Of a stretch of 64,000 nucleotides of DNA, positions 2,195 to 34,329 are shown in pieces (position 1 is the stretch's first letter; every line of letters starts with the position of its first letter). The notes beneath the pieces were generated by a model. The model worked only from the letters and a program-made list of their open reading frames with translations. It had not been told where the DNA came from and searched no databases. Location: the NCBI GenBank assembly GCA_025360005.1, contig JANYDA010000001.1:87144-151143 (forward strand), written 5' to 3'. This stretch comes from Fibrobacteria bacterium (lineage in GTDB: Bacteria > Fibrobacterota > Fibrobacteria > UBA11236). A program made the position numbers and the translations under genes.

Positions 2195-3622
2195 TTGGCA
2201 AATGAGAAATCCTTGCAATTCCTTTCACTAGAATTCCTGGCTGCCCTAAGCGTGGTTTTCCTCGCTTACTGGGCGATACCCGCCAAGACCTGGCAAAACA
2301 TCCTGCTTCTTTCAGCCTCATTGGGGTTGGTTTTTTACCTCAGCCGGATGGCATTGGCCGTCCTGATTGTTTCCACGATATTCGAGTGGCTCTTAGCGCG
2401 GAAAATGGGCGGCCGCACGCCCGTCCAAGGCCGATCCGCCTTGCTTTGGTCGTCCATTTCCATAAACCTGGCCCAGCTCGCTTTTTTCAAATACTCCGGA
2501 TTCTTTTTGCCCCAAGCGATTGCGCTCGTTTCGCGTTTCGGCCTCAATACGGCGAGCTTGCATATCCTAATGCCCGTCGGCCTCTCCTTCTGGACCTTGC
2601 AGAAAATGACTCTCACGCTGGATGTCTATTTCCGGCGGGCCGAAGCGGAAAAAAACCTTTTGATGTGCCTGCTCTTCACCAGCTTCTTCCCCACCCTGTT
2701 GTCCGGGCCCATCGAGCGTTCCCGGGATTTGCTTCCCCAATTCCGGCGCGGACGCGTGTGGGACCCGCAGCGGTTCTCGGAAGGAGTCTGGTTGTTCGCG
2801 GTGGGCGCATTCCTTAAGGCGGTCATAGCCGATAACGTGGCCTTAAGCGCGGATGCCCTGCTCGCGCCGCGCAACTCGGGTTGGCCGCTTCTGCTGGGGA
2901 TCTGGGCGTACGCGTTGCAAATCTACGGGGACTTCGCCGGCTACTCCTACATGGCCCGCGGCATCGCCAAACTTTTCGGCCTGGAAATCACCCAGAACTT
3001 CCTGGCTCCTTATCTCGCGCGGAACCTGTCCGACTTCTGGAAACATTGGCATATCTCCTTATCGGGATGGTTGAACGAATATATTTTCGTGCCGGCTTCC
3101 ATGAAATTCCGGCGTTGGAAAACCGGCGGCATCATTTTCGCCGTTTGGTTGACGTTCATAGCCAGCGGACTCTGGCACGGAACGGGACTCACCTTCTTCA
3201 TCTACGGGTGCGTACATGCCATCGGCCTGACCTTTTTCATCCTAAGTAAAAATCTTCGCAAACGGGCTAAGGAAAGATTCGGCGGGGCCTACCTGGACGG
3301 ACTCGCCACGTTCATCACCTTCCAATATGTTTGCCTGGGATATGTTTTCTTCCGCGCCCCGGACCTCACCACTGCCCTGGCGCAGATAAAATCCATTTTC
3401 CATTCCGTGGGAAATCCGGCCGGCTCCGGGTTCGACTGGAAGATCCTGCTCGTTTCGGCGGTGACGGTTTACTGGCTGCAATCCCAGATTCGCGAAAAGA
3501 AGGACGTTTTCTGGGTGTTCAAACGTCCTATCTGGTATCGGATGGCCATCTACCTGGTGCTGGGGTTTTTCCTGCTCCGCTTTTATGCTCCCTCCGATGG
3601 ATTCATTTACTTCCAGTTTTAA
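2195..3622 (+). CDS. MBOAT-family membrane-bound O-acyltransferase (DltB/AlgI-like)
   Basis: 475 aa, polytopic and hydrophobic, with conserved-His regions (FWKHWHISLSGWL, WHGTGLTF) typical of MBOAT. Follows the carrier-protein gene. Confidence 0.85.
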   Translation: MANEKSLQFLSLEFLAALSVVFLAYWAIPAKTWQNILLLSASLGLVFYLSRMALAVLIVSTIFEWLLARKMGGRTPVQGRSALLWSSISINLAQLAFFKYSGFFLPQAIALVSRFGLNTASLHILMPVGLSFWTLQKMTLTLDVYFRRAEAEKNLLMCLLFTSFFPTLLSGPIERSRDLLPQFRRGRVWDPQRFSEGVWLFAVGAFLKAVIADNVALSADALLAPRNSGWPLLLGIWAYALQIYGDFAGYSYMARGIAKLFGLEITQNFLAPYLARNLSDFWKHWHISLSGWLNEYIFVPASMKFRRWKTGGIIFAVWLTFIASGLWHGTGLTFFIYGCVHAIGLTFFILSKNLRKRAKERFGGAYLDGLATFITFQYVCLGYVFFRAPDLTTALAQIKSIFHSVGNPAGSGFDWKILLVSAVTVYWLQSQIREKKDVFWVFKRPIWYRMAIYLVLGFFLLRFYAPSDGFIYFQF

Positions 3623-3626
3623 AGGA

Positions 3627-4700
3627 ATGCCCAAGGTGAACCCGCTAAAACCGCTCCTGCGAGATTTCCCCGCCGCCACCCGGGCGTTCCTGCTGGCTGT
3701 TTCCATCACCCTGGTTTTAACATTCGTGATGCGCGTTACGTTCCATAGCAATAAGCCCGGGGTTTTCCTGCTGGGCGATTCCGGGATCGGAAATTACCGC
3801 CTGGATCCGGGACAAAGGCTCCAGGATTTCCTCGAACGCTCCAACCCTAAGACCGAGGTGGATAACTGGGCGGAGCCCGGGGCCACTCCCATGGATTTTT
3901 TCCTGCAGTACAGCCGGGGATGCGCCCTGGCCGGCAAACCCCGCACCGCCATCATCGCCTTTTCACCCGACAAGTTCCTGGAAGCCCCGGATTTCCACCG
4001 CTTCGATGACGGCGGCGTGAACCTGAGATGGCTCCCGTGGAATTCTACGGGGTTGAAACTATTCTCCCGGCTCACCGGGAAGGAGCGGAACGCCGCCATC
4101 GTACAGCAGGCGAGCATGCCGCTCTATGCCGCGGCGGACTTGGGCAAATCCCTGTGGATCCGCTATGTGCAATGGCCGTGGGAACGTTCGCAAATGCTGA
4201 CTCCCTCCGGAGAGCGCAAGAAGCGGATCGAGATGAAATCCATCGAATCCGGAAAAGCCAAGGATACTTTGAAGCTCATCGGCGACGATGCCTTCGCCGA
4301 GCTTCCCTTGGCAAAGGATTGCGAGTTCTTGCTCCGCTCTTTGCGGGAACAAGGCGTAGAGACAAGGGTTATCCTGCTCCCGATCGGAAATCCGAAACTG
4401 ATCCGCCTGACCTATTCCAACCATGCCCAAGCCAATCAGGACTCCGTTAAGGCCAGGATGCGCCATTGGCTGGATGTCCAGGGACAATCCTATGTGGATT
4501 TCAACGCTCCCGGGGAAATGGATCATTTTCCGGACTCCACCTGGGATGACATGAGCCATTTGAAATCCCCCTCCGCTTTCGCCTACATGTCCCGGAGAAT
4601 CCAGGAGTTCCTGAGATCGGCTGCGGTACGCGATGTCCAGATGCCTTATTCTTTGGTCAACTCCAGCGGCGAGGATGGAAACGCGGACGCGAGGAATTGA
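3627..4700 (+). CDS. DltD-like / SGNH-hydrolase-fold membrane-anchored protein
   Basis: The track ORF starts at 3585; the likelier start is ATG 3627 with an AAAGGA RBS immediately after the MBOAT stop. N-terminal TM helix, then a GDS-type motif FLLGDSGIGNY. Position between MBOAT and adenylase matches DltD. Confidence 0.55.
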   Translation: MPKVNPLKPLLRDFPAATRAFLLAVSITLVLTFVMRVTFHSNKPGVFLLGDSGIGNYRLDPGQRLQDFLERSNPKTEVDNWAEPGATPMDFFLQYSRGCALAGKPRTAIIAFSPDKFLEAPDFHRFDDGGVNLRWLPWNSTGLKLFSRLTGKERNAAIVQQASMPLYAAADLGKSLWIRYVQWPWERSQMLTPSGERKKRIEMKSIESGKAKDTLKLIGDDAFAELPLAKDCEFLLRSLREQGVETRVILLPIGNPKLIRLTYSNHAQANQDSVKARMRHWLDVQGQSYVDFNAPGEMDHFPDSTWDDMSHLKSPSAFAYMSRRIQEFLRSAAVRDVQMPYSLVNSSGEDGNADARN

Positions 4701-4701
4701 C

Positions 4702-6294
4702 GTGAGGCCCGATTTTTCCCGGCCCAACCTGGCCGAGCTTTTCTATCACTCCGCTTCCGTGTCTCCTGAAAGCCAAGCCCTGGGTTGCGAGGACCTTTCC
4801 CTGACCTACGCCCAACTCCTGGATCTGGTGGAGTCCGTGCGTGTCCCGCTCGGCGCGGACGGTTCTGAGTTCGTAGGTATCCTCGCCTATCGCAGCCCGC
4901 TGGCTTATGCCGCCGTGCAGGCCATCTTGGCGGAAGGCAAAGCCTATGTTCCCCTCAATCCCCTGTTTCCCGCCTCCCGGAACGCATACATTCTCCGCAA
5001 AGCGCGAATCACCACCCTGATCGTGGGGGAAGAATGCGCGGATTCCCTGTCGGCCCTGCTGCCGGAGTTGCGGAAGGCGGCCCATCCCATCCGGTTGGTT
5101 TTCCCGGAATGGATGCCATCCTTGCGGAGCCTGGTTGATGCGGCCGGCGAGGCGGTTCTTCCGATCGAAATGAAAATGGGATCGGCCCTTTCGCCTACGC
5201 CCGTAAAAGCGATTCCGGAAGACGGGAGCGCTTATGTCCTGTTCACCTCCGGCAGTACGGGCGTGCCCAAAGGAGTGCGGGTGCGGCATGACAATGTCCT
5301 CTCCTATCTGCGTTCCTTCCTGGCCGCCTACCCCATCTACCCGCATGACCGGATTTCCCAGACCTTCGATCTCACTTTCGATGTCAGCGTGCATGACCAG
5401 TTCATCACCTGGGCCGTGGGCGCCGTCCTCATCGTGTTTCCCGTCAAATCGCTTTTCTCGCCGCTGGCCTACGCCGCCGCCCAGAAGCTGACGATATGGT
5501 TCTCGGTGCCGGCGCGCGCCGCTTTCCTGGAAAGCGCGCGTCTGGTGGTACCGGGGGCGTTACCGGACGTACGCATAAGCCTGTTCGCGGGAGAAAAGCT
5601 CACCTGGAAGACATGCGAAATCTGGAAACGGATAGCGCCCCAAAGCCGAATTCTCAACCTGTACGGGCCCACGGAAGCCACTGTCGCTTTCACCCATTTT
5701 GAAATCCCGGAGGATTTTCCGGAAACGCGCGCCTATCAAGGCGGAATCCCCATCGGCAGAGCATGGCCGGGTCAAAGCGTCCAGGTACGCGCGGCCGACG
5801 GTTCCCTTTGCCGGGCCGGGCAGGCGGGATCGCTTTGGCTGGCCGGAGATCAGCTCGCACCCGGTTACCTGGACGAACCGGAAAAAACCGCGGAGAGATT
5901 CATATCGCGCGACGGAACCCTCTGGTATCGCACCGGCGATCTGGTCATCGAGGAGGCGGATGGGGCGCTGCAATACCTGGGCCGCGAGGATTTCCAGGTG
6001 AAGGTGATGGGCTACCGGATCGAGTTGGGCGAGATCGAACATGCCCTGATGAATTGCTCGGGCGCGGCCTTTGCGCTCGCCGACGTCGCGGCCATCCGGG
6101 GAGGGATGGAAGAGATATTTTGCGTGCTTCCCGGGCATCTGGCGGAGAGCAAAAAGGAAATCACCCTTTCCCTGAAGCGCTTGCTGCCCGCTTATATGGT
6201 GCCCCGGCATATTTTTTTCATCGATGACGTCCCCTTGAACGCCAACGGCAAAATGGATCGCGGAGCCCTTAAAGCGCAACTCACGCGGTCATAA
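4702..6294 (+). CDS. AMP-dependent adenylation enzyme (DltA-like carrier-protein ligase)
   Basis: Adenylation core motifs LFTSGSTGVPKGV, NLYGPTEATV, YRTGDL, GREDFQVKVMGYRIELGEIE and NANGKMDR. GTG 4702 with a GAGGAA RBS follows the upstream stop. Alternative ATG at 4675 or the track start 4633. Confidence 0.85.
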   Translation: MRPDFSRPNLAELFYHSASVSPESQALGCEDLSLTYAQLLDLVESVRVPLGADGSEFVGILAYRSPLAYAAVQAILAEGKAYVPLNPLFPASRNAYILRKARITTLIVGEECADSLSALLPELRKAAHPIRLVFPEWMPSLRSLVDAAGEAVLPIEMKMGSALSPTPVKAIPEDGSAYVLFTSGSTGVPKGVRVRHDNVLSYLRSFLAAYPIYPHDRISQTFDLTFDVSVHDQFITWAVGAVLIVFPVKSLFSPLAYAAAQKLTIWFSVPARAAFLESARLVVPGALPDVRISLFAGEKLTWKTCEIWKRIAPQSRILNLYGPTEATVAFTHFEIPEDFPETRAYQGGIPIGRAWPGQSVQVRAADGSLCRAGQAGSLWLAGDQLAPGYLDEPEKTAERFISRDGTLWYRTGDLVIEEADGALQYLGREDFQVKVMGYRIELGEIEHALMNCSGAAFALADVAAIRGGMEEIFCVLPGHLAESKKEITLSLKRLLPAYMVPRHIFFIDDVPLNANGKMDRGALKAQLTRS

Positions 6295-6321: not shown

Positions 6322-8922
6322 CTACGCCTTCGCTTTTGCCGCCGCTGCCGCCGCCGCCAGCTTCGGCTCCGGAAGCAGTTTCAATGCCAGCCAGGGCGTA
6401 AGACACATCGACGTCCCCAGCAAGGCCAGCAGGCCCAACACCGCGAACTTACCGATGCTGGCTATTCCCATGTGGGTGGTGAATAGCATCCCCGCATATC
6501 CGGCCGTGGTGGTCAAGGTGGAGACGGCCACCAGCACGCCGATGCCCCCATACAATTCCCCGATGCGATGGCGTCCCAGGCGCAAGTATCCCAGCAGCAT
6601 ATAGCTCCCCACGTCCACGGCATACCCTTGCAGGGTTGTGATGACGATCAGATTGAAAGGCCCGATTTTCAATCCCGACAAACCCATCAATCCCAGTATC
6701 CAAACCAGACCCACCGCCATCTGGATCAAGCAGGCGATCAGCAGGCGCCAATCCCGGAAGATCAGCGCCAGCAACAGGATCAACACCCCGACCATCCAGA
6801 TGGAAACGCGCAAGCTGTCCGATTTCACGATGTGGATGATGTCGCTGAAGACGAAGCTGGTGCTGAAGCTCGCCAACCTTTCGCCGCCGGCGGAGAGATG
6901 GCCGTAATGTTCCTGGAAAACCGAAGCATCCAGGGCGTTGGAGGAATTGTACCGTCCGTAGATGAAACCCAGGCGGCCGTAGCTGCCATCGCGCTCCCGG
7001 AGCAGGTTGAGGGCCCACGGCGGGATATCGGCGGGATGGAAGGGCGACGTCATGGCCAAGTCGCGCAAGTTGGCGATCATGGCGGAATCGTCCCCTTTGG
7101 CCCTATCGAACACGCGTGCGGAGATCAATTCCCCGATGTGGTTTATCTCCAGCATCCGTTCCTGTTGCGCCTGCACGGGCGGTACGAAAGTGGCCAAGGT
7201 AAGGAAGCTGCGCAAATACGGATCGCGGTTCACGGTGAGACGCCGGAGCAAGGTATCCTGGAGCGCGGCCATGGAAGCGGAATCCCTGGCCATGACCACT
7301 ACCGGCTGGCTGCTGGTGCGATTGCTGCCCAACGCCACGCTCACGGGCAGCCCGCCATCCTTCTCGCCGCGCGTGTCGCGCAATTTGGAGAAGTCGTATT
7401 CAAAAGCCAGGCGCGGTATGAAAAAGCCAAGCACCAGGGCACCCGCGCAAACGGTGAGGGCCGTTCCCTTTACCAGCTTGGGCCAATCCGGCCGCCATGA
7501 GAAGGGCCAACGGATCGGATCAGCCGCCCTGATGCGCAGCCATGCGAATCCCGGCACCGAGCCGAGGCTTTCCATAGCGAACAGGTATGCGGGCAAAAGC
7601 AGGTAGACGCCGGCTAGGCTCACCACTATACCTGCCGAGGCCTGGACGCCGAACTCATAGAAACCCACGAATTTGGAAGCCAGCAAGGTCAGCAAACCGG
7701 CCACGGTAGTGGATGCGCCCACCAGCAAGGAGAAGAAAAGCTCATCGAGTGTCCTGGCAAGCGCCGTCGCCCAATCCTCGCCCTCCCGGACCAGTCGCAG
7801 CGCGTACCCCAGCACGTAGATGGAAAAATCGATCCCCATGCCGAACAGGATGGAGACCACGAAAGCCGTATACAAATTCAAATGGCCATAGATACCCATG
7901 GTCAGGGCCAAAGTCACCAAGCAAGCGATGACCGCCTGCAAGAAAACCAGGAACACGGAACCGAAATTTCGGAAAAACGCCGCGATGATGAGGATGTTCA
8001 GTCCCACGGATATCAAGGTTGCCAATAAGCCGTTGCTCGCCAGCGAGTCCACCTCCGCCAATTCCTTGTAAGGGCCCTCCACGCCGATATTCAGCCGCGC
8101 GCCGTATTCGGAACGCAAGGGGCCCAGCAAGGCATGGCTGCGCGCCACTACCGTCTTCACGTAATCGAAATCGGAGCTGGGCTTGGACAGCGATGCCTGC
8201 ACCAATCCCACCAACTTGCCCTCGCGGGTCCTTCCCATCAGGCGGGAACGGAGCGAATCGGGGATGCCGCTCTTGGAGTCGTATTGATCCGCGCCGGTCT
8301 TTCCCTTTTTCAAAAACCGGGTGAAGGACTCGGCGGCCTCGTCCGGAAGTCCCAACTGCTGGGGCAAGTCCGCGTCGAACCACTCCCGCTTGGGTTTGGC
8401 GGCCGCCGAATCCTCGTCCAGAAGATCGACGGTCAATGGCCCTTGCTTGCCCAGGTCCAGCCTCAAGTCCTGGATCTCCCGCGAGATTTTCCGCAACTGA
8501 TCCTGGGGCAGGTAAAGCAATGCGTGTTTGCGGAAAAAGGAATTGTCGCGCTGCGATTGGGCATAGACTACGTCCGGCCACTTCCGCAGCGAATCCGCAA
8601 GCCTATCCTGGATGCGGGCCAGTTCCGCGGGATCCTGGATTGAGATGGCGATGGTATAGAGGTCGGAACTGCCCAAGCGGGTCTTGGCCTCGCGCATGGC
8701 GCGGATGGTTTCCGTGTTCCGCGGCAGCAGGGCGTCGAGATTGGCGTCTATGCGCAGATGGGTGGCATAGAATCCGCAGAGCGCGGAGGCGCCGAGACTG
8801 ATTGCCACGATGAGGAAACGATGGCGTTGGGAACGGCGGATATGCGACAGCAGCAACCGTTTCCAAAACCCGGCTTGGCGGGAGGATGTACCGACAAGGT
8901 TATTTTTCTTCGTTGATGTCAC
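6322..8922 (-). CDS. MMPL / RND-superfamily exporter (two 6-TM bundles with large periplasmic loops)
   Basis: 866 aa; duplicated MMPL-type transmembrane architecture (…GIDFSIYVLGY… and …GYAVDVGSYML…); C-terminal Ala/Lys tail. Its start overlaps the upstream lipoprotein gene by 23 nt. Confidence 0.8.
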   Translation of the reverse strand: MTSTKKNNLVGTSSRQAGFWKRLLLSHIRRSQRHRFLIVAISLGASALCGFYATHLRIDANLDALLPRNTETIRAMREAKTRLGSSDLYTIAISIQDPAELARIQDRLADSLRKWPDVVYAQSQRDNSFFRKHALLYLPQDQLRKISREIQDLRLDLGKQGPLTVDLLDEDSAAAKPKREWFDADLPQQLGLPDEAAESFTRFLKKGKTGADQYDSKSGIPDSLRSRLMGRTREGKLVGLVQASLSKPSSDFDYVKTVVARSHALLGPLRSEYGARLNIGVEGPYKELAEVDSLASNGLLATLISVGLNILIIAAFFRNFGSVFLVFLQAVIACLVTLALTMGIYGHLNLYTAFVVSILFGMGIDFSIYVLGYALRLVREGEDWATALARTLDELFFSLLVGASTTVAGLLTLLASKFVGFYEFGVQASAGIVVSLAGVYLLLPAYLFAMESLGSVPGFAWLRIRAADPIRWPFSWRPDWPKLVKGTALTVCAGALVLGFFIPRLAFEYDFSKLRDTRGEKDGGLPVSVALGSNRTSSQPVVVMARDSASMAALQDTLLRRLTVNRDPYLRSFLTLATFVPPVQAQQERMLEINHIGELISARVFDRAKGDDSAMIANLRDLAMTSPFHPADIPPWALNLLRERDGSYGRLGFIYGRYNSSNALDASVFQEHYGHLSAGGERLASFSTSFVFSDIIHIVKSDSLRVSIWMVGVLILLLALIFRDWRLLIACLIQMAVGLVWILGLMGLSGLKIGPFNLIVITTLQGYAVDVGSYMLLGYLRLGRHRIGELYGGIGVLVAVSTLTTTAGYAGMLFTTHMGIASIGKFAVLGLLALLGTSMCLTPWLALKLLPEPKLAAAAAAAKAKA

Positions 8923-9709
8923 CGGAAGCCTCTATCTTTTGACGGATCCGCAATCCCGCGCCTTGGCAAAACCCGTCGCCCGCGAGCAAAGTAACCCCGG
9001 AATCGCCGGCGGTCGAACCGCTGGCCTCCAGGCAATTTTTCAAATCGACGGTTTTGAACCAATCGTCGACGGTCAATTGCAACAGCAGCTTATTCAGGGC
9101 CGCCGCGGTGATCCTGATCCCGGTGGGACCGTCGAAATCCAATCCGTCCCGCAGATTGAGGCGGACGGAAAACGGCCTTGCCCGGCCGTCCGCGCTATCC
9201 GTCCCCCCCCTGATTTCCATGTTCGGGGTGTTGGTATCCACGGCGGGCGCGGACTCGTTATCGGAAAGCTCCAGGCCGACCCGGGTATAAACGCCTTCCG
9301 GCAAGCGCAGATGTTCCAAAGGCGGATTGGACGCGCCGGTCATCAGATCGACGACGAAAGGCCCCGGAAGCGAAATCCCATCGCTGTCGCACGTGTATCC
9401 GGGAGCCGATTCGCAAGTCAATCCCACCGGAAGACTGAGATCGATTTTGCGCACCGCAATGGTGAGGGAAGAGATCTTGATGGCGGAACCCGCGGAGTCG
9501 AACACCTCGAACGTACCATCCGGGTTACGTATGACCGCGGCGGCGCTTTTCCGCAGCACCGAATCGGTAAGCGAATTGGCCCTGAACACCAACGCGACTT
9601 CGGCCAGGGGCGGGTTGCCGGCGCCCGTTCCGCCGGACACTTTTTCCGGCTGGCAGCGCAGGAGCACCAACCCCAGCGCCAGAACCGCCGCCCTCATTCC
9701 CGGGCTCAT
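8900..9709 (-). CDS. Lipoprotein paralogue 1 (GGTGAGNPPL family; Fibrobacter-type partner of TIGR02147)
   Basis: Likely start MSPGMRAAVLALGLVLLRC with a GAAGGA RBS. Mature N-terminus CQPEKVSGGTGAGNPPL. Shares VDDWF and LAGDGFC blocks with the 10623-11453 paralogue. Confidence 0.6.
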   Translation of the reverse strand: MSPGMRAAVLALGLVLLRCQPEKVSGGTGAGNPPLAEVALVFRANSLTDSVLRKSAAAVIRNPDGTFEVFDSAGSAIKISSLTIAVRKIDLSLPVGLTCESAPGYTCDSDGISLPGPFVVDLMTGASNPPLEHLRLPEGVYTRVGLELSDNESAPAVDTNTPNMEIRGGTDSADGRARPFSVRLNLRDGLDFDGPTGIRITAAALNKLLLQLTVDDWFKTVDLKNCLEASGSTAGDSGVTLLAGDGFCQGAGLRIRQKIEASGDINEEK

Positions 9710-10545
9710 TGCGGATCCTTCTTTACCCGGGTCAAAGGGAACAATTGGAGATTGACTTGGTAGACTGCTTCGGCGTGCTGCTGGGTGCCGGCAAAATCGA
9801 GGATGTCCCTCCAAATCACCTCCATGCGCGACTTCAATTCCAGGAATGCGCTTTGGGTGAGGCCGATGGTCACCGAACGCACATCGCGTTCGCCAGGACC
9901 GAAATGCTTAAGCGCATCCTGCCCCAACTGCATGGCCGCCAGGTGGTAATTCCGGAGCGCGAGTTGGCTGGCCTCCGACTCCGTGGCTATGACGGGGTCC
10001 GCAAGACGCCAAGCCATGGTTTCCGGATCCAACCGGACGAGCCCCAGCTTTTGCAGCACATCCCTCGCGCCGTCGACTTGGGCGGCGGTCAGGCGGGGGA
10101 AGATGCGCTCCGCAATCCATCCGCTGGTTCCGTCGAAGCCAGGGTGAGTCATCAATTCCCGGACCACGGGATTGTACCAATTGCTGAAGAACTCATATTG
10201 CGATTTGTCCAGGGTCTTTACCGCGGCATACCGTTTGTTCTTCAGGATGTTTTGGTAGAAAAGGTTTTTTTCATCCCAGCTCTTGGCTTGGCCGTAGCCA
10301 ACCAGGTTCTGCAGGAATTCCGTTTCCGTACGATTGAGTTTGAATGCCTTTGCCACGGCAACGGCATACTTGGAACTTAGGTTCCGCTTTCCCTGGATGA
10401 CCATTTGCAGGAAGTTGGGAGAGGAAAACCCGGAGCGTTTGGCGAAAGTCCGGAATGAAAGCTTTGGGGAATCGGCCTTCAAGGCCGCGAAAGCATCCCG
10501 AAGATAATCGCGGTATTCGAGATAGGTATGGATGTCCGGTTTCAT
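9706..10545 (-). CDS. TIGR02147-family protein (Fibrobacter succinogenes paralogous family), copy 1; N-terminal HTH-like
   Basis: MKPDIHTYLEYRDYLRDAF…SFRTFAKRSGFSSPNFLQMVIQGKRNLS…QYEFFSNWY. The track ORF begins at 10587; the start was chosen by alignment to the other two copies. Confidence 0.75.
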   Translation of the reverse strand: MKPDIHTYLEYRDYLRDAFAALKADSPKLSFRTFAKRSGFSSPNFLQMVIQGKRNLSSKYAVAVAKAFKLNRTETEFLQNLVGYGQAKSWDEKNLFYQNILKNKRYAAVKTLDKSQYEFFSNWYNPVVRELMTHPGFDGTSGWIAERIFPRLTAAQVDGARDVLQKLGLVRLDPETMAWRLADPVIATESEASQLALRNYHLAAMQLGQDALKHFGPGERDVRSVTIGLTQSAFLELKSRMEVIWRDILDFAGTQQHAEAVYQVNLQLFPLTRVKKDPQ

Positions 10546-10622
10546 GGATGGGAAGCGTTCCCAACCAAGCGGGCCGGGGAATCCCAATTATACAAAATCG
10601 CCGACGGTAAAAACGTCCGGAT

Positions 10623-11453
10623 TCAGGGTTGTTCCACCTGATCCTCATAGTTGATTCCGCCGGATGCCTCGATGTTCCGCCTCACCCTTATGCCGGTCCC
10701 GGAACAGAAACCGTCCCCTTGCAATCGGACAATGCCGGCGCTATCGGAACCGGCCGGGGAGGCGGCCATGCAAGCCTGCATATCCGTCCCCTGGAACCAG
10801 TCGTCCACGTTCAAACCCAAAAGGATGTTGTTCAGAGTATCCGATTTGATCCTTACTCCCACGGGATCTCCGAAATCCAAGCCCTCGGTAAGGTTAATCC
10901 GGATCACGAATCGTTGGCCTGCGGACCCCAGCGCGCCCATCCTTCCCCACAGGACGATATTCTGGCTCGTCGAATCCCAATCGGTCAAGGAGTCCTGTTT
11001 GTTCGCAATCAGTTTAAACCCGATCTTCCGGTAGAGTCCCGCCGGGATCTTGAAAACATTCAAAGCCGGATGGGATATCCCACGCAGCAAATCCAGGTCG
11101 AACGGACCTTCCAGGGTGGTTTCACCGTCCTTGCAGGGAAGCCCGGAAAAGATGGGGCAATCGAGACTGTCCGGCAATGCGAAATCGATGCCCTCCACGC
11201 GCGACACGATGGAATCAAGCGATAACACGGCTCCGGCGGAATCCCGTATCACGAATCCGCTGTCCAAGGCGATGAGGCCGGAGGCGGTGGATTTGGGCAG
11301 AATCCTGGGGCCTGAGGATTTCGCCTTGAGAGCCAAGGTCACCTCGCCGAGCGGCGGGTTCCCTGCGCCCGCGCCTCCGGCTACGCGTTCAGGAATGCAT
11401 TGGAAAAAGGAGATGCAGGTAAGCATGAGGCAAAGACGGAGTACCGGAATCAT
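10623..11453 (-). CDS. Lipoprotein paralogue 2 (GGAGAGNPPL family)
   Basis: Signal peptide MIPVLRLCLMLTCISFFQC. Mature N-terminus CIPERVAGGAGAGNPPL. Paralogous to 8900-9709. Starts 1 nt after the stop of TIGR02147 copy 2. Confidence 0.6.
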   Translation of the reverse strand: MIPVLRLCLMLTCISFFQCIPERVAGGAGAGNPPLGEVTLALKAKSSGPRILPKSTASGLIALDSGFVIRDSAGAVLSLDSIVSRVEGIDFALPDSLDCPIFSGLPCKDGETTLEGPFDLDLLRGISHPALNVFKIPAGLYRKIGFKLIANKQDSLTDWDSTSQNIVLWGRMGALGSAGQRFVIRINLTEGLDFGDPVGVRIKSDTLNNILLGLNVDDWFQGTDMQACMAASPAGSDSAGIVRLQGDGFCSGTGIRVRRNIEASGGINYEDQVEQP

Positions 11454-11454
11454 A

Positions 11455-12306
11455 TCAAACCTTTCCCTCGCGGGAGGAAGGGCCCCGGGTCAGCGGAAAC
11501 AATTGCAGATTCACCTGGTATACCGCATCGGTCTCGCGCTGGGTTCCCGCGATTTCCAAAACTTCTTTCCACACGTTTTCGATTCTGGATTTCAATTCTC
11601 CATAGGCTTCATGGGATAGGCCGATGGTTACCGAGCGGACATCCCTTTCCGCGGGCCCGAATACTTTCAGGCTATCATGCGCCAACTGGATCGCGGCCAT
11701 ATGGTAGTTGCGAATCCCCAGGTGGGTGGTCTCCGAATCCGTGCTTACCACCGTGTCCACCAAGCGCCAGCGACCGGAATCCGGGTCCAAACGGACCAAG
11801 TCCAGGTTCGTCAGCAGGGTTTTGGCGGAGTCCACCTGGGCGATGGTGATGCGCGGGAAAATACGCTCCGCGATCCATCCGCTGCTCCCGTCGAACTCCT
11901 TGTGCACCAGCAGCTCGCGGACGACGGGGATGTACCAATGGGTGAAAAATTCATACTGGGATTTGTCGAGGTATTTCGCCGAGGCATAGCGCGCGTTGCG
12001 CAATATCTTCTGGTAGTAAAGATTTTTTTCGTCGAGACTCTTGGCTTGGTCGTAGCCCACCAGGTACTGGAAGAAATCCGTCTCCTGTTTGTTCAGCTTG
12101 AAGGCCTTGGCAGCGACCACGGCATTCGTGGAACTCAAATTGCGCTTTCCCAAGATGACCATTTGCAGGAAGTTCGGAGACGTGAATCCCGCTTTTTTTG
12201 CGAAGGTCCGGTAAGACATGCGGGGTGAGGCCTTTTGGATAGCCGTGAAGGCGTCCTTAAGGTAGGCCCGATACTGGATGTATTTGAAGATATCCGGTTT
12301 GTTCAT
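11455..12306 (-). CDS. TIGR02147-family protein, copy 2
   Basis: MNKPDIFKYIQYRAYLKDAF…SYRTFAKKAGFTSPNFLQMVILGKRNLS…QYEFFTHWY. The track ORF extends to 12381; the internal Met was chosen by alignment. Confidence 0.75.
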   Translation of the reverse strand: MNKPDIFKYIQYRAYLKDAFTAIQKASPRMSYRTFAKKAGFTSPNFLQMVILGKRNLSSTNAVVAAKAFKLNKQETDFFQYLVGYDQAKSLDEKNLYYQKILRNARYASAKYLDKSQYEFFTHWYIPVVRELLVHKEFDGSSGWIAERIFPRITIAQVDSAKTLLTNLDLVRLDPDSGRWRLVDTVVSTDSETTHLGIRNYHMAAIQLAHDSLKVFGPAERDVRSVTIGLSHEAYGELKSRIENVWKEVLEIAGTQRETDAVYQVNLQLFPLTRGPSSREGKV

Positions 12307-12388: not shown

Positions 12389-12862
12389 TTATTTCACCTC
12401 CGTGGTGTCGCCACCGGCATGGCCGGACGCTTCCTGTCCTTCGACAGCGTCCTTAACGCCGCCGACCTCTCCATCCTTCTTATCCTCGGTTTTGGTCGAA
12501 TCCGATTTTTCTTCGTCGCCGCCTTTCCCGGCTTCGGTGCCTTCCGCACCTGAATGGTGATCCTTTTCATCGCAACCCGCGACTTCGGCGGAATCCTTTA
12601 CTTCAGTAGAATCCTTTACTTCAGTAGAATCCTTTTCATCGGCCACTTTGGCGCTATCGCCGTCCTCGTGACCTTTCCCCATGGCTTTTTCATGGCTGCA
12701 GCCGGTGCTACCGGTATCGACCACGCCGCCCTTGGTCTGGGTGGACAGGGCTCCGTTGGAATTGCTTGCAGGGTCGGAAATGCCCAGACATCCGGCCATA
12801 AAAGCCAGCGACAGGCATCCTGCCCCCAAGGTGAGAGTATTCCGCATAATGACTCGATTCAT
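12389..12862 (-). CDS. Small acidic secreted lipoprotein with KDSTEV tandem repeats
   Basis: Signal peptide plus lipobox-like LAFMAGC. Low-complexity Asp/Glu/Lys/Gly-rich body with His and Cys. An 18-bp tandem DNA repeat at 12591-12644 encodes KDSTEV KDSTEV KDSAEV. Confidence 0.5.
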   Translation of the reverse strand: MNRVIMRNTLTLGAGCLSLAFMAGCLGISDPASNSNGALSTQTKGGVVDTGSTGCSHEKAMGKGHEDGDSAKVADEKDSTEVKDSTEVKDSAEVAGCDEKDHHSGAEGTEAGKGGDEEKSDSTKTEDKKDGEVGGVKDAVEGQEASGHAGGDTTEVK

Positions 12863-13126
12863 ATTCGTTCTCCAATGTTAGCGTTGACCTGGGGCGACTC
12901 TTCGCTCCGGAACTTAAGATAACATCGATAATAATTCATGATCAAATATTATATATTTTAATATGATTCATCATTATTTACATAAGACATTGATTTTAAA
13001 TATGTTATAGGATAATAAATTTTTAGATTATTTTTATTATGAACCCATTATGATTCATTTAAGTCCGTTTTTGGGAAAATTCGTTTCGCAGTTACTAGGT
13101 TTGGAACCAGTGTCAAGGAGGATATT
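12863..13126. promoter_or_regulatory. AT-rich divergent intergenic/promoter island with two copies of the palindromic motif ATGAnTCAT
   Basis: About 230 bp of >75% A+T inside a GC-rich context. ATGATTCAT occurs at 12963-12971 and 13050-13058. Flanked by divergently transcribed genes (12862 minus, 13127 plus). Confidence 0.5.
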
Positions 13127-13909
13127 ATGGCTCTTGGAAATGAACTCCATCGTTTGTTCGCCACTTTATGGTGCGGCTGCGTCTTGGCGGCCGCCAGCGT
13201 CCCTATGGAAACGGAAACGGCCCGCACCATCACCAGGAACGGCTTTGAGGCCAACGCCTCCGTTGAATACCAAGCCTCTTCGGAAGGGGCCGAATGGGCC
13301 GTACCGTTCGCTTTCGAGTACGGAATCCTGGCAAACCTAGAGCTGCTGGTAGAGCCGGTGTTATTCACTGCAATCCGACCCGATTCCGGGCGCAAGGCCT
13401 CCGGCCTGGGTGACCTGGAGGTTACCCTGAACTACCGGTTCCTGGAAGAGAGGGGAGCCATGCCGGCTTTAGGTCTGGCCGGAGAGGCTAAGATAGCCAC
13501 CTCTAACGATAGGCTGATAGGGACGGGGAAGTCCGATTATGCCGGATATTTCATCGCCAGCAAAAATCTCGGATGGTGCGACGTGCATGGCAACCTGGGG
13601 TATACATGGGTGGGCCAACCTTCCGGAGCGCGACTGAATGATTTGATGTCTTTTTCCCTGGGAATGGAACAGGCCGGGATGGGAAAGTTCCAATTGCTGG
13701 CGGAGGTATCCGGCAATATGCCATCCTTTTTCGGGAAAGCCGGGAATACGCCCGAGAATCCCATCACCCCGGAAGCATCGGGAGGCGAATTGGTGGGCAC
13801 CGTGGGCGCGCGTTATTTCTGCGCACGGAAAATGGCGCTCGCGATTGGCCTCAGCTACGACAATAGCAATGCCTTCCTTCTTTCGCCCGGACTCATTTTG
13901 GGGTTTTAG
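13127..13909 (+). CDS. Outer-membrane beta-barrel protein (MetA-pathway/phenol-degradation-like transporter family)
   Basis: Signal peptide, alternating amphipathic strands, motif LGDLEVTLNYRF, C-terminal …LILGF ending in Phe. 260 aa. Confidence 0.6.
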   Translation: MALGNELHRLFATLWCGCVLAAASVPMETETARTITRNGFEANASVEYQASSEGAEWAVPFAFEYGILANLELLVEPVLFTAIRPDSGRKASGLGDLEVTLNYRFLEERGAMPALGLAGEAKIATSNDRLIGTGKSDYAGYFIASKNLGWCDVHGNLGYTWVGQPSGARLNDLMSFSLGMEQAGMGKFQLLAEVSGNMPSFFGKAGNTPENPITPEASGGELVGTVGARYFCARKMALAIGLSYDNSNAFLLSPGLILGF

Positions 13910-22539: not shown

Positions 22540-22615
<76 letters not shown>

Positions 22616-29924: not shown

Positions 29925-29944
29925 ACCGGCGCGGATTGCGTGTT

Positions 29945-29985
29945 TCGCATTTGTCCCATTTGTTCCATTTGTTCCTGTTCAATTC
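29945..29985. repeat. Three tandem CATTTGTYC direct repeats in the promoter region of the 28377-29924 gene
   Basis: gCATTTGTCCCATTTGTTCCATTTGTTCCtgttcaattcc lies 20-60 bp upstream of the minus-strand start codon. Confidence 0.4.
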
Positions 29986-30163
29986 CGCATTCGCGATTGG
30001 GGGTGAATAGCCCGGCTCCAGCATAATACGCGCGGATAAGGATTCGCGCCTCTCACTTGTCGCACGCTGAGGATAATCCGGTAATCGTGCAAGTGAACCG
30101 GGAAAAGAGCAACCCCCCGGGCAAGCCGACCCGCCTTGATGTCGGTGGGCGCCAGTTGCAGGG

Positions 30164-30179
30164 CCGCGGATATATCCGC
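30164..30179. promoter_or_regulatory. Perfect 16-bp palindrome CGCGGATATATCCGCG in a non-coding region
   Basis: Read directly from the sequence. Sits in a ~600-bp ORF-free stretch, 29925-30530. Confidence 0.4.
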
Positions 30180-30356
30180 GCCGGTGGGATCCCGGGGGGG
30201 GTTCCATGCCGACATAGCCGGCTTTGCGGAACGTCAGGGTATTGGCCGCGGCGGAGGCCTTCCTCGGATAAAGGTTGGATGGGTCTCCACTTTCCGAGGG
30301 GGAGTGGGCGAAGTTTAACCCGGAGGTCCGCTTTCCCGGTTCCGCCGCGTAGGGAT

Positions 30357-30400
30357 TCCGCTGGCAAAACGCCAGCGAGTTTGCAGGGCGGTTTTTTTCA
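30357..30400 (+). terminator. Terminator-like hairpin (CGCTGGC-aaaac-GCCAGCG) followed by a T7 run
   Basis: 7-bp GC-rich stem at 30357-30375, then GGCGGTTTTTTT ending about 30400. No annotated plus-strand gene lies upstream, suggesting a small transcript or attenuator. Confidence 0.3.
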
Positions 30401-30530
30401 GGATGCGCCATCATTGGTAGGTTTTTTGAATCCTCAGGCAAGCCTTGCGCCCTCCGTGGCAACATGTCCTCCCGGGGCCGAAACCATTCTCGTCGGTTTT
30501 GAGGTATAATGCATAGGATCGAAGAACGCT

Positions 30531-31388
30531 ATGAAAGCATCCAAGCAAGAACCAAACGCCAGGCCCGATATTTTCCGTTATGCGGACTATCGCGCCTTCC
30601 TCAAGGACAGCTATGAATCGCGTAAGGCCGCCAACCCGGCGTTCTCGCACCGTTACCTGGCCGCCAAGATAGGTTTCGATGCCGGGCAGTTCTCCAAGAT
30701 CCTGAGCGGAAAGCGCAACCTGACGCATGCCATGATCCTGAAGTTCTCGGATCTGTTCAAGCTGGGAAAGAAGGAAAAGGAATACTTCGAGCTTCTGGTG
30801 CTGGCCAATCACGCGAAAACACCCACCGACCGCGCGGAACTGCTCGCGAAGCTTCCGCCGTTGCGCCCCAAGGCCGCCAAAGCCGTGGCCTCCGGCCTGG
30901 ATGAATATTACCGGCATTGGTACCATAGCGCTTTGCGGGAGCTGCTTGGCTTCTATCCTTTCCGCGGCGACTGGAACGCCTTGGGGCGGATGCTCGTCCC
31001 TGCCCTTTCGGCCGAGCAAGCGGAAAAAGGCGTGATGCTATTGGTAGAGTTGGGATTCCTGCAGAAGGATGCGCAAGGCGGATTCCGCATTTCCGATCCG
31101 CATATCACCACCGGGTACAAAAGCCCTTCCGCGGCCGTGCACCATTTCATCCGGACCACGCTGGACCTGGCAAAAGGCTCCTTGGACGGCTTTCCCAAGG
31201 ATATCCGCAATCTGTCCACCCTGACCTTCAGCACCTCGGAGAACCACTTCCTGCAGATCCAGGAAAAGATCCGGCTGTTCCGCAAAGAGCTGGCGGATGA
31301 AGTGGACAAGGTGGAAAAGCCCGAACGCGTCTACCAACTCAATATGCAAATCTTCCCGCTATCGGAAACCTGGGGATCCGGCAAATGA
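30531..31388 (+). CDS. TIGR02147-family protein, copy 3
   Basis: …RPDIFRYADYRAFLKDSY…SHRYLAAKIGFDAGQFSKILSGKRNLT…YYRHWYH… aligns with copies 1 and 2. A TATAAT element lies 21 bp upstream. Overlaps the downstream lipoprotein gene by 4 nt. Confidence 0.75.
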   Translation: MKASKQEPNARPDIFRYADYRAFLKDSYESRKAANPAFSHRYLAAKIGFDAGQFSKILSGKRNLTHAMILKFSDLFKLGKKEKEYFELLVLANHAKTPTDRAELLAKLPPLRPKAAKAVASGLDEYYRHWYHSALRELLGFYPFRGDWNALGRMLVPALSAEQAEKGVMLLVELGFLQKDAQGGFRISDPHITTGYKSPSAAVHHFIRTTLDLAKGSLDGFPKDIRNLSTLTFSTSENHFLQIQEKIRLFRKELADEVDKVEKPERVYQLNMQIFPLSETWGSGK

Positions 31389-32749
31389 AAATCCCGTCGA
31401 CGCTATCCGTGCTGGCGGCCAGCTGCGGCGTGATGGCGGGGCTTTGCCTCACCGCATGCGGACCCAACCGCGTCGCCGGAGGCACCAGTTCGGAGGCGGA
31501 GGCGCTTCTGCAAGGAACGGTGACCAAGCCGGACGGTTCGGCCGCGGCGGGAGCCCGCGTGCGCATCCGCCCCATCGGCTACCTCTCCCGCTCCGGAACG
31601 GATACCTCCGCGCTCGCCGATTTGGTCGCCGATTCCCTGGGCAAGGTGAAATGGACCACCCGCGATACGGGACTCTTCAACCTGGAAGCGGAACTGGGGG
31701 ATACCTTGGGAACGCTGATAAGGGACATTTCCCCCGGCCGCGAATCCGGGCATCTCACCGCATCCCTGGACACCAACGGATCCATCCGCGTCAACCTGGC
31801 CACGCCTCAAGCCGGCTCCGGCTATTCCCTGCGCGTCTACGGAATGGAACGGTTCCAGGCAGCCGATGCCCAGGGTATCTTCCATGTTACCCTACCCGCC
31901 GGCGGCTACTCCCTCCTCATAGAGCATTCTCCGCCCTCCGGATCCCCGCTCTTGGTCCGGGACGTGCAGGTGGCCAGTGGAAAAACCACCCTGCTGGATT
32001 CGCTGCGCTTCCCGGCTTTGGATTCGGTCCTGCTGGGATACTGGGCCTTCGAGGAAGGCGGCGGCGATTCCGCCCGGGACGGCTCCGGGAACGGGCACGC
32101 GGGAATGGTGCGCGGCGCCCAATGGGTCGCGGGCAGGAAGGGCCTGGGACTCCGCTTTACGCAGGGACAGGGATACGTGGACATGGGAATTCCCCAACCG
32201 GACACTTTCGCCTTCGGCGCGGCCAGGGACTATTCCTTTTCGGTATGGGCCAAGACCGACAACCCCGTGCCCAACCGGGGGCTGGGGCGACGCATCATTT
32301 CCAAGCAAGGGGGCGCCAACGGATTCTCGTATTTCCTGCGCATCTTCCCGGATGGACGGCCCGGCTTCGCTTCCAACACGCGCAAGGACACGGTAAAAGC
32401 TCCCGCCGGATCCGTTACGGCCGCGCGGGATTTGATCGCGCCCGTGAACGTGGGCGACGGCGCCTGGCACCATTGGGCCGGGGTCCGCAAGCGGAACCGC
32501 CTGACCTTGTATATAGACGGCCAGGCTGTCGCCTCCGCCAGCGACGACAGCCTGAGATCGGATTATAGTTTTATCGATTACAATGATCACAGTGCCCTGC
32601 TATACCCGGATCCCGGGCAGGACAATCACCTTTTGATCGGCTGCGCCAAAACCGGCGTGGACGGTTTCGACGGCGTGATCGATGAAGCCCGCGTATACGG
32701 CCGCGCGCTCACGCCCCAGGAAATCCTGCTGCTCGCCGATCCTTTCTAA
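31385..32749 (+). CDS. Lipoprotein with C-terminal LamG/concanavalin-A-like lectin domain
   Basis: Lipobox LTAC. Mature N-terminus CGPNRVAGGTSSEAEAL. C-terminal LamG-type blocks (DGAWHHWAGVRKRNRLTLYIDGQAV…DGVIDEARVYGRALTPQEI). Confidence 0.75.
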   Translation: MKIPSTLSVLAASCGVMAGLCLTACGPNRVAGGTSSEAEALLQGTVTKPDGSAAAGARVRIRPIGYLSRSGTDTSALADLVADSLGKVKWTTRDTGLFNLEAELGDTLGTLIRDISPGRESGHLTASLDTNGSIRVNLATPQAGSGYSLRVYGMERFQAADAQGIFHVTLPAGGYSLLIEHSPPSGSPLLVRDVQVASGKTTLLDSLRFPALDSVLLGYWAFEEGGGDSARDGSGNGHAGMVRGAQWVAGRKGLGLRFTQGQGYVDMGIPQPDTFAFGAARDYSFSVWAKTDNPVPNRGLGRRIISKQGGANGFSYFLRIFPDGRPGFASNTRKDTVKAPAGSVTAARDLIAPVNVGDGAWHHWAGVRKRNRLTLYIDGQAVASASDDSLRSDYSFIDYNDHSALLYPDPGQDNHLLIGCAKTGVDGFDGVIDEARVYGRALTPQEILLLADPF

Positions 32750-32761
32750 GGATCCGTTAAG

Positions 32762-33994
32762 TTACTCCCCCAGTTTCCCGCGCAGGAATTTCACTTCCGT
32801 CTTGGAACTGGTGAGGCCGATGGCGGCCTGGAAATGCGCGCGGGCCTTCTCCGTCTCCCCCACCTGCGAATACAGCTCCCCTAATGTCGCATGCAGCAGG
32901 TAGTAGCCCTTAAGCTTGGGATGCTCTTTCAACGGTTCCAACTTTCCGATCGCCGCCCGCGGCCCTTGGGTTTGCGATAGGATCACCGCCCGGTTCAGTT
33001 CGATCACTGGATTATCCTTCAGCTCCGCCAATAAGGCGTAGCAGCCGTCGATCCGGTCCCACCGCGTGGACGCAAAATCCGGAGCCGTGCAATGTTCCGC
33101 CGCAATGGCGGCTTCCAGGTGGTATTCCGTAAGCTCATCCCCCTTGGCCGCCTCGGTCAACAGGTATTGGCCCGAACGGATAAGTTCTCTGCTCCAGCGT
33201 GTTCGATCCTGCCGGGAGAAAAGGATCAACGCTCCCCGATCATCGATGCGGCTTTCCAGGCGCGCGGCATGGAAGCACATCAAGGCCATCAGGGCGGAGG
33301 AGGCGGGCTGGCCGGGGAAACCGTCCAGGAGCAGCCGGCACAAGCGCATGGCCTCGTAGCAAAGATCCTTGCGGATCAGGAAATCCGGATGGGAAGAGTT
33401 ATAGCCTTCGTTGAAAAGCAGGTAGATGCCCAGGCGCACGCCCTTGAGGCGATCCTGCAGGGATGCATCGTCGGGGATTTCCAGCGGCAGATCCCGATCG
33501 CGGAACTCCTGCTTGGAACGGGCCAGCCGCTTTTCGATGGCGGATTCATTGGACAGCAGCGCGTTGGCGATCTCCTGCACGGAAAAGCCGCAGATGATCT
33601 TGAGGGTGAGGGCGAGCCGGGATTCCAGGGGCAGGATGGGATGGCAGCAGACGAACATCATGCGCAGCATGGAATCCTCCACGCGCTCTTGCTGGAAGGA
33701 CTCCTCGAAGCTGCCGAGGGTGAGGCCGTTCAGCTCCAGATCCAAGGCGTATTTGCCGGCCAGGGTCTCCCGCTTGAGATGGTTCAGGGCCTTGCGTTTG
33801 GCCACCGTCATGATCCAGGCGCTGGGGTTTTCGGGGACGGATCCATAGCTCCATTGCGTGAAGGCCGCCAGCAATGCTTCTTGCACCACGTCCTCGGCCA
33901 GTTGCAGGTTGCGCACTCCGAAAATCCCCGCAAGCAGGGAGACTATTCTCCCCGACTCATGGCGGAAGAAATGCTCCATCTCTTCCGGGGCCAT
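32762..33994 (-). CDS. ECF-type sigma-70 factor with long C-terminal extension (co-encoded with a YciI-like protein)
   Basis: Sigma region 2 (…EDVVQEALLAAFTQW…) and region 4 (…FSVQEIANALLSNESAIEKRLARSKQE…) followed by a ~230-aa extension. The track ORF starts at 34030; the internal Met (MAPEEMEHFF) abuts the upstream gene's stop. Confidence 0.8.
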   Translation of the reverse strand: MAPEEMEHFFRHESGRIVSLLAGIFGVRNLQLAEDVVQEALLAAFTQWSYGSVPENPSAWIMTVAKRKALNHLKRETLAGKYALDLELNGLTLGSFEESFQQERVEDSMLRMMFVCCHPILPLESRLALTLKIICGFSVQEIANALLSNESAIEKRLARSKQEFRDRDLPLEIPDDASLQDRLKGVRLGIYLLFNEGYNSSHPDFLIRKDLCYEAMRLCRLLLDGFPGQPASSALMALMCFHAARLESRIDDRGALILFSRQDRTRWSRELIRSGQYLLTEAAKGDELTEYHLEAAIAAEHCTAPDFASTRWDRIDGCYALLAELKDNPVIELNRAVILSQTQGPRAAIGKLEPLKEHPKLKGYYLLHATLGELYSQVGETEKARAHFQAAIGLTSSKTEVKFLRGKLGE

Positions 33995-34329
33995 TACATA
34001 TTGCCCAGTTTGCGAACCTCCAGCTGGCAATGGTCCAGCAGCGGGTTCTCCTTGGCCAAGGCCACAGCATCATCGTAATCCTTGGCCAGCACGATGCAAT
34101 AGCCGCCCACGATTTCCTTGGACTCCAGGAAAGGCCCGTCCGTAATAACGGTTTTCTTGTCCTTTACCAACCGCCCGGTGCCGGGTTCCAGCGGCTGCCC
34201 GCCTTTGTAACGTCCCGCCACGACCATCTTTTCCTTCCATACGGTGAAGGCTCCCATCCGCTTTTGCATCACCTCGGGGGAGACGTCGTTGTAATCGTAT
34301 CCGCGCACCAGGAAAATGAATTCATCCAT
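33994..34329 (-). CDS. YciI-like (YCII-related) small protein, partner of the ECF sigma factor
   Basis: 111 aa, …YKGGQPLEPGTGRLV… and …GGYCIVLAKDYDDAVALAKENP… typical of the YCII fold. Immediately upstream of, and co-directional with, the sigma gene. Confidence 0.8.
   Translation of the reverse strand: MDEFIFLVRGYDYNDVSPEVMQKRMGAFTVWKEKMVVAGRYKGGQPLEPGTGRLVKDKKTVITDGPFLESKEIVGGYCIVLAKDYDDAVALAKENPLLDHCQLEVRKLGNM

Follow-up and report, generated by a model that had tools for sequence, protein, structure and literature searches.

Introduction

The closest described counterparts of the proteins considered here are the helix-turn-helix (HTH) proteins of the XRE/Cro-C1 class, among them the 434 and P22 c2 repressors, DdrO, ClgR and the controller C proteins, together with the HigA/YbaQ-type antitoxins and the RRNPP regulators PrgX, Rgg, ComR and PlcR. 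Enterococcal pheromones, which are sensed by PrgX-type regulators, are cut from lipoprotein precursors. Here, a stretch of 64 kb from a Fibrobacteria bacterium (contig JANYDA010000001.1, positions 87,144 to 151,143; hereafter the window) was analyzed for its three genes of the family TIGR02147, named copies A, B and C. The analysis indicates that TIGR02147 proteins are probably operon-specific transcription factors of the XRE class, which are made together with a lipoprotein and most likely bind at the head of their own operon.

TIGR02147 proteins resemble the XRE/Cro-C1 class in a predicted five-helix domain, whose helix 2-turn-helix 3 element falls at a conserved sequence block, and in the palindromic candidate operators found at the operon head in several TIGR02147 clades, autoregulation being likely. 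They differ from that class in matching the Pfam profile HTH_3 only below its curated threshold, in a large family-specific region, DUF4423, with a second, winged-helix-like domain, and in being obligately paired with a motif-bearing lipoprotein. Compared with the 434 repressor, they also have one extra residue between the two conserved glycines. HigA/YbaQ-type antitoxins provide the best structural matches of the N-terminal domain; they have about 95 amino acids (aa), whereas TIGR02147 proteins have about 280 aa and are partnered by an exported lipoprotein, not by a toxin.

Three TIGR02147 genes in the window

The window has a G+C content of 59% and contains the following TIGR02147 genes and predicted domains.

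9706..10545, minus strand: TIGR02147 copy A, 279 aa, database protein P0001
10282-10524, minus strand: copy A, residues ~8-88, predicted N-terminal XRE-type HTH domain
9976-10179, minus strand: copy A, residues ~123-190, predicted winged-helix-like domain
C-terminus of copy A, minus strand: predicted helices and conserved tail VYQVNLQLFPLT
11455..12306, minus strand: TIGR02147 copy B, 283 aa, HTH block at 12133-12216
30531..31388, plus strand: TIGR02147 copy C, 285 aa, diverged HTH block at 30645-30725

Copies A, B and C scored 238.7, 256.1 and 274.5 bits, respectively, against the NCBIfam model TIGR02147 (Fsuc_second; curated cut-off 50 bits), with profile positions 2-271 of 272 covered, so that the three paralogues reported in the initial annotation are real open reading frames (ORFs) of this family. 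They span 21.7 kb, and no fourth copy was found in the 64 kb by tblastn. The Pfam domain DUF4423 (PF14394, gathering threshold 30 bits) occupies the C-terminal two thirds of all three copies (98.4, 100.4 and 102.5 bits) and was matched by all 95 aligned relatives. Pairwise identity is 66% between A and B and about 28% between C and either of them; the closest relatives of the window copies come from Fibrobacterota metagenome-assembled genomes. As start codons, ATG 10545 for A and ATG 12306 for B are likely, in preference to longer ORFs that begin with TTG.

The initial annotation had also described a conserved block common to the three copies and located it at 9706, 11455 and 30531. The block is present, but these coordinates are gene boundaries, 9706 and 11455 being the stop-codon ends of A and B. 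The block as quoted, SFRTFAKRSGFSSPNFLQMVIQGKRNLS, is found exactly in copy A (residues 30-57; 10375-10458, minus strand). Its version in copy B, SYRTFAKKAGFTSPNFLQMVILGKRNLS, is identical at 23 of 28 positions (12133-12216, minus strand), but that in copy C, SHRYLAAKIGFDAGQFSKILSGKRNLT, at only 11 of 28 and with one gap (30645-30725, plus strand).

Searches with the TIGR02147/DUF4423 profile returned 14,641 clusters at 50% identity and E <= 1e-10, and 19,855 at E <= 1e-3. Fibrobacterota have many paralogues per genome, and members also occur in Desulfobacterota, Bdellovibrionota and Myxococcota. The description of the family as one of unknown function was accurate: the NCBIfam entry is a 'paralog' model, the Pfam entry is a DUF and the literature is essentially silent, with no mention of TIGR02147 in what was searched. 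One DUF4423 protein, Bd3700, is listed without comment as up-regulated during growth of Bdellovibrio inside its prey (PMC12546842).

Predicted fold and cytoplasmic location

Ninety-five family members were aligned, and the structure of copy A was predicted with AlphaFold2 (AF2). The model had a mean predicted local distance difference test score (pLDDT) of 89.7, with values of 94-97 for residues 11-100. Its N-terminal part contains five helices (residues 11-25, 31-38, 45-50, 58-67 and 72-86) in lambda-repressor-like order, which predicts a five-helix fold of the XRE type with helices 2 and 3 as the HTH. The block at 10375-10458 would thus comprise helix 2, the turn and helix 3 (recognition helix SPNFLQMV), followed by a GKRNLS loop. 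The C-terminal region was modelled as a winged-helix-like alpha/beta unit plus two long helices. In Foldseek searches with this model, HigA, PA4674 and C.AhdI were retrieved at a probability of 0.99, with poor E-values of about 0.2, because a query of 279 residues was set against targets of 90 residues.

Traces of the HTH were also found at the sequence level. A sub-threshold HTH_3 match in copy A covers residues 33-71, and among the window copies a cyanase HTH domain was matched with E 3e-4 and HigA, in copy C, with E 0.01. In scans of the 95 members, HTH families were matched at the same position in 20: HTH_3 in 11 (best E 8.7e-5; sub-threshold or marginal), HTH_31 in 2 (3.7e-5), CYNS_N in 5 and HTH_19 in 2. 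This evidence is weak yet recurrent. A match to DUF305 (E 0.6), obtained with the family profile against PDB sequences, was rejected as spurious.

The hydropathy of the three copies was also scanned. The maximum Kyte-Doolittle mean over 19 residues was 0.49-1.04 and therefore A, B and C have no transmembrane segment, which sets them apart from RodZ-like proteins. No signal peptide was found either, and the isoelectric point (pI) of the three proteins is about 9.5. An XRE-like HTH near the N-terminus and a role in DNA binding had been proposed in the initial annotation; the predicted fold and the lack of any sign of a non-cytoplasmic location both support this proposal. By predicted structure, A, B and C belong with the XRE/Cro HTH proteins, although their sequences fail the Pfam threshold.

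Coupling to lipoprotein genes

Each copy is directly followed by a gene for a putative lipoprotein, named lipoA, lipoB and lipoC.

8900..9709, minus strand: lipoA, 269 aa, database protein P0133, with four further invariant Cys
9605-9655, minus strand: lipoA tether motif CQPEKVSGGTGAGNPPL
10623..11453, minus strand: lipoB, 276 aa (267-aa form in the database)
11349-11399, minus strand: lipoB tether motif CIPERVAGGAGAGNPPL
31385..32749, plus strand: lipoC, 454 aa, with CarboxypepD_reg-like and LamG/Laminin_G_3 domains
31457-31504, plus strand: lipoC degenerate motif CGPNRVAGGTSSEAEA

A and lipoA, like C and lipoC, share a stop/start overlap of the form ATGA, and the gap between B and lipoB is 1 nucleotide (nt). 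The contact between regulator and lipoprotein genes is therefore even tighter than had been claimed. The idea of local regulator/target pairs holds as far as the pairing goes, but the members of a pair are co-operonic and translationally coupled and do not form separate transcription units. Translational coupling implies that a single mRNA supplies both proteins at a constant ratio.

The lipobox, sought with the pattern [LVI][ASTVI][GAS]C, is canonical in lipoC (LTAC). LipoA (LLRC) and lipoB (FFQC) have a signal peptide and a Cys, but their residue at -1 is not a canonical one. Among 22 homologues of the lipoA/lipoB family this Cys never varies, whereas position -1 is occupied by H, Q, R, G or C, in most cases by R, Q or H, as compared to the canonical G, A or S. 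From these sequence features lipoA and lipoB are likely lipoproteins. The unusual -1 residue would reflect either a looser lipobox in Fibrobacterota or a different processing of proteins of the lipoA/lipoB type. LipoB was predicted to be a beta-sandwich with a disordered motif region (pLDDT of the tether below 50).

A likeness of lipoA and lipoB to MbnP, the 'metallo-mystery pair four-Cys motif protein' (PDB 7l6g), amounts to 12% identity, with a model of moderate confidence (pLDDT 70). Neither protein had a match in NCBIfam or Pfam, and no gene for an MbnH-like di-haem peroxidase was seen beside the pairs in the neighbour listings; the family profile match and the MbnH partner by which MbnP-like four-Cys proteins are recognized were thus both missing.

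The structural matches to HigA raise the question of whether the TIGR02147 protein could be the HigA-like antitoxin of a toxin-antitoxin pair. This is hardly credible, and the reading was rejected on gene content: toxin genes, HigB-like or other, are missing from the adjacent positions; the partner, at 270-450 aa, is exported and has a signal peptide as well as disulfide cysteines; and the regulator has three times the size of HigA and an extra conserved domain. In the window, the adjacent genes encode exported lipoproteins of 269-454 aa, none of which matched a toxin family.

A tether motif and the strictness of the pairing

Eighty related loci, found with a 34-sequence alignment on contigs representing one genome per species, were compared with the window. 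They come from Fibrobacterota, Candidatus Raymondbacteria, Desulfobacterota, Bdellovibrionota, Bradymonadia and Myxococcota, among others. Where the sequence reached far enough, the ORF after the TIGR02147 gene began, with few exceptions, at an offset of -3 to +2, and most of the 80 loci have the value -3. The product of this ORF combines a signal peptide with a Cys and, 2 to 13 residues further on, with the motif GG[TSA][EG]xGNP. By BLAST, the partner proteins form at least six families without relation to one another, in addition to singletons; they include Beta_propel, CarboxypepD_reg and LamG domains and a weak match to DUF4382, many having no Pfam match. Since the partner families are unrelated, the motif is the only feature they have in common. 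Its degenerate form, as in lipoC, also occurs in the CarboxypepD_reg-type partners of loci L080 and L036.

The pairing was strict in both directions. In 652 kb comprising the window and the loci, 57 of 59 motif-bearing lipoprotein-like ORFs directly follow a TIGR02147 gene; the two exceptions are a frame-shifted true partner (L027) and a tandem second copy (L030). In a reverse test, metagenome contigs were scanned for DNA encoding GGTETGNP, which gave 120 matches, mostly chance ones outside genes. Forty-one of these were in a lipoprotein context, 32 of them with at least 600 nt of upstream sequence, and in 29 of the 32 a TIGR02147 gene lay immediately upstream (hmmsearch E mostly 1e-65 to 1e-136). 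The corresponding figure for the non-lipoprotein matches was 1 of 79, and that one was a misclassified lipoprotein. All synonymous codons are in use at every position of the motif, and its conservation as a DNA site was rejected for this reason. Regulator clades track the families of partner lipoproteins, which implies that the cassettes diverge as units. Across the family, near-invariant DUF4423 residues include W123, Y124, R129, E130, H201, R220, D221, R223 and a QVNxQxFP tail.

This strict two-way association goes beyond what simple autoregulation explains. It may reflect an ancestral cassette of which the 5' part (promoter, regulator, signal peptide and tether) was kept and the 3' domain exchanged, or a genuine functional link that joins DUF4423 to the tether. 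In one form of such a link, the DUF4423 region of the regulator would read the GG[TSA][EG]xGNP motif of its own lipoprotein, on the unexported precursor or on a released fragment, in a module that spans phyla; the Asn-Pro bond in the glycine-rich loop could even be a site of self-cleavage. We consider this unlikely. If true, transcription of the lipoprotein operon would be coupled to the export or envelope status of its product, a new feedback between biogenesis and expression, and the near-exclusive occurrence of the motif beside the TIGR02147 regulator would be explained.

Another form of the link, which we regard as quite unlikely, would make the HTH-fold protein a cytoplasmic partner of the lipoprotein precursor, DUF4423 recognizing the motif after the lipobox Cys prior to export. 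The protein would then either target or hold the precursor as a factor dedicated to it, or sense export as a switch whose activity changes when unexported precursor titrates it. The near-obligate pairing both ways (57/59 loci, 29/32 metagenomes) is compatible with this, but co-inheritance of an ancestral cassette explains it without any physical contact. The motif is the sole shared feature of at least six unrelated partner families, lies in a tether predicted to be disordered (pLDDT below 50) and is conserved as protein and not as DNA; the stoichiometry is fixed by translational coupling; and so many near-invariant residues in DUF4423 would be unusual for the sensor domain of paralogous regulators. 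Against these points, there is no known precedent for such a factor for Sec- or Lol-routed lipoproteins, the basic pI and two folds of DNA-binding type better suit a DNA binder, and the palindromes at operon heads described below point to DNA binding.

An N-terminal XRE HTH joined to a larger C-terminal non-HTH domain, encoded beside a secreted precursor with a short conserved peptide, is also reminiscent of RRNPP systems. By analogy, a motif peptide freed from the N-terminus of the lipoprotein would re-enter the cytoplasm and be sensed by the regulator. Such a circuit is very improbable. Unlike the RRNPP regulators, TIGR02147 proteins have a C-terminal domain that in the model is devoid of a tetratricopeptide repeat (TPR) array, and no TPR match was found in Pfam. 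The motif is nearly identical across the paralogues of one genome, hence without pair specificity, and it belongs to the mature protein, outside the signal peptide. The host bacteria, Fibrobacterota and Desulfobacterota, are diderm and do not belong to the Firmicutes, and the module has no linked gene for a peptide importer; moreover, the partner is a full-size lipoprotein.

Candidate operators and promoters

If TIGR02147 proteins are operon-specific transcription factors, as favoured here, operators might be expected at the heads of their operons. A 16-bp palindrome, GTRTWC-N4-GWAYAC (e.g. GTGTTCAAATGAACAC, GTATTCTTGAGAATAC), was found 21 times in 588 kb of related loci, in clades other than that of the window, against an average of 0.2 copies, and never more than 1, in dinucleotide-shuffled sequence, an enrichment of about 100-fold. 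Copies include L045 3908, L047 3904, L077 3913, L079 3902, L051 3860, L071 3882 and 15 more. Sixteen of the 21 lie 65-135 nt upstream of a TIGR02147 start, and another, in L063, is about 270 nt away from the start as called. The remaining ones are 70-230 nt upstream of a gene for a lipoprotein or secreted protein, usually one that heads the gene string of the regulator; in L061 this gene comes after the pair. Overall, nearly all copies fall within about 60-180 nt upstream of one of these genes. This placement is what the operator of an autoregulated operon looks like, which makes the palindrome a candidate operator. In several loci it is located upstream of the -35 region, and therefore the sign of regulation could be either. 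The only k-mers enriched upstream of palindrome-free loci, the -10-like TGTATAAT and AT-rich words, were rejected as operators.

In the window, the TIGR02147 genes are arranged in two units. Unit 1 is read in the order promoter region (12863-13126), small acidic lipoprotein gene, B, lipoB, putative internal promoter, A, lipoA and a gene for an MMPL-family transporter; unit 2 consists of C and lipoC. The features relevant to their control are the following, the two promoter-like sites having been read directly from the sequence.

12389..12862, minus strand: small acidic lipoprotein-like gene, 157 aa, lipobox MAGC, tandem DSTEVK repeats, pI 4.6
13040..13057, minus strand: distal conserved site TGAATCATAATGGGTTCA, imperfect inverted repeat TGAAYC-N6-GRTTCA, candidate operator
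12963..12972, minus strand: proximal conserved site GATGAATCAT, core TGAATCA, candidate operator half-site
10587..10597, minus strand: promoter-like TTTTGTATAAT, within the 77 nt that separate lipoB from copy A
10549-10563, minus strand: 6-3-6 inverted repeat TGGGAACGCTTCCCA, following promoter-like TTTTGTATAAT
30497..30510, plus strand: promoter-like TTTTGAGGTATAAT, 21 nt upstream of the copy C start

The small acidic lipoprotein-like gene product had no Pfam match. A small lipoprotein gene of the same type stands at the head position in the relatives L001, L003 and L004, where the gene order is a divergent gene for an outer-membrane-barrel-like protein, small acidic lipoprotein, TIGR02147 and GNP lipoprotein. 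Conservation of this order indicates that B occupies the ancestral position and that A/lipoA arose from B/lipoB by tandem duplication. Upstream of the small lipoprotein, the distal site is found at -195, -192, -194 and -194 from the start codon in the window, L001, L002 and L003, respectively, and the proximal site at -108, -104, -105 and -107. The positions of TGAATCA are thus fixed, while the rest of the four promoter regions has diverged, and this heptamer occurs only 5 times in the whole window. The divergent arrangement is kept in L001 and L004, which places the TGAATCA sites in a shared divergent promoter region.

Upstream of both A and C, a similar CGTCGG..TTTTG..TATAAT arrangement was observed. 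A generic scan for sigma-70 promoters and terminators around both loci gave nothing above shuffled sequences, and the promoter-like sites of A and C were left unscored in it.

Proposed mechanism

According to the mechanism that we propose, A, B and C would be cytoplasmic, sequence-specific DNA-binding transcription factors. Each would be built of an N-terminal HTH of the XRE/Cro type, a winged-helix-like domain and a helical hairpin, the latter two constituting the DUF4423 region and the hairpin probably mediating dimerization. The regulator would be the first conserved gene of a two-gene module, with the lipoprotein gene translationally coupled downstream, and would most likely bind an operator heading the operon to which it belongs, thus controlling both itself and the lipoprotein. 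The data establish the family membership, the contact of the genes, the lack of export signals, the recurrent pairing and the lipoprotein motif; the fold is a prediction, and DNA binding, operator, autoregulation and its sign are inferred.

Several observations weigh against this mechanism. The HTH_3 matches of A (15.5 bits) and B (15.3 bits) fall short of the Pfam gathering score of 23, and copy C had no HTH_3 match in Pfam. The family profile gave no HTH match at E <= 10 against PDB sequences, and winged-helix matches were placed on residues by the pattern of secondary structure, the match list being without residue ranges. A search that tolerated one mismatch gave no copy of the 16-bp palindrome in the window. 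Palindromes shared upstream of the three window pairs, for which the initial annotation had suggested a search, were not found in k-mer or inverted-repeat searches: no k-mer of 10 or longer is common to the three upstream regions, which have only scattered 8-9-mers in common at inconsistent positions, and the only perfect inverted repeat with 6-bp arms upstream of the window copies, TGGGAACGCTTCCCA before the A start, is not shared. The half-sites of the TGAATCA element are in the opposite order to those of the palindrome of other clades, and the TGAATCA sites could serve another regulator or the divergent gene at 13127. Finally, the literature searched contains no experiment on any TIGR02147 member.

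Neighbouring genes

The last gene of unit 1 encodes the transporter.

6322..8922, minus strand: MMPL-family transporter gene (Pfam MMPL), whose longest ORF overlaps the end of lipoA

In the Logan gene call the MMPL gene starts about 90 nt after lipoA, and it is possibly co-transcribed with A/lipoA. As a regular third component of the module the transporter was rejected, because the third gene varies across loci. Convergent with it, a Dlt-like set on the plus strand (2195-6294) encodes an acyltransferase of the MBOAT type, a possible carrier protein of 82 aa, a protein of 357 aa and an AMP-binding enzyme. On the other side of unit 1, the gene at 13127-13909 (plus strand) diverges from the B operon, in a layout kept in L001 and L004; its secreted product of 260 aa had no match in Pfam.

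Upstream of copy C, 606 nt (29925-30530) lack a convincing gene. They contain a hairpin, GCTGGCAAAACGCCAGC, at 30360-30376 and, 15 nt further on, a T-run after GGGCGG; no Rfam match was obtained in this stretch at E <= 1. A minus-strand ORF within it encodes a CarboxypepD_reg-like peptide, TLTFRKAGYV, and may be a gene remnant. Convergent with lipoC, 32762-34329 (minus strand) encodes a sigma factor of the extracytoplasmic function type whose C-terminus is extended by DUF6596; a gene with a YCII domain precedes it. At the Rfam gathering score, the whole window yielded only a tRNA (22543-22615).

Significance

The assignment of an HTH by itself adds a routine, though useful, annotation to a large DUF family, giving thousands of genes a testable label as XRE-type transcription factors. 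The module of regulator and GNP-tether lipoprotein, together with its candidate operator, is new as far as could be checked. A TIGR02147 protein and its motif-bearing lipoprotein represent a widespread, unstudied regulator-lipoprotein module, in which strict pairing and a candidate operator define an experimental system of one regulator, one operator and one envelope protein. Its study could bear on how variable cell-surface or periplasmic binding proteins with LamG, beta-propeller or beta-sandwich domains are controlled, and could reveal a new lipoprotein-linked signal.

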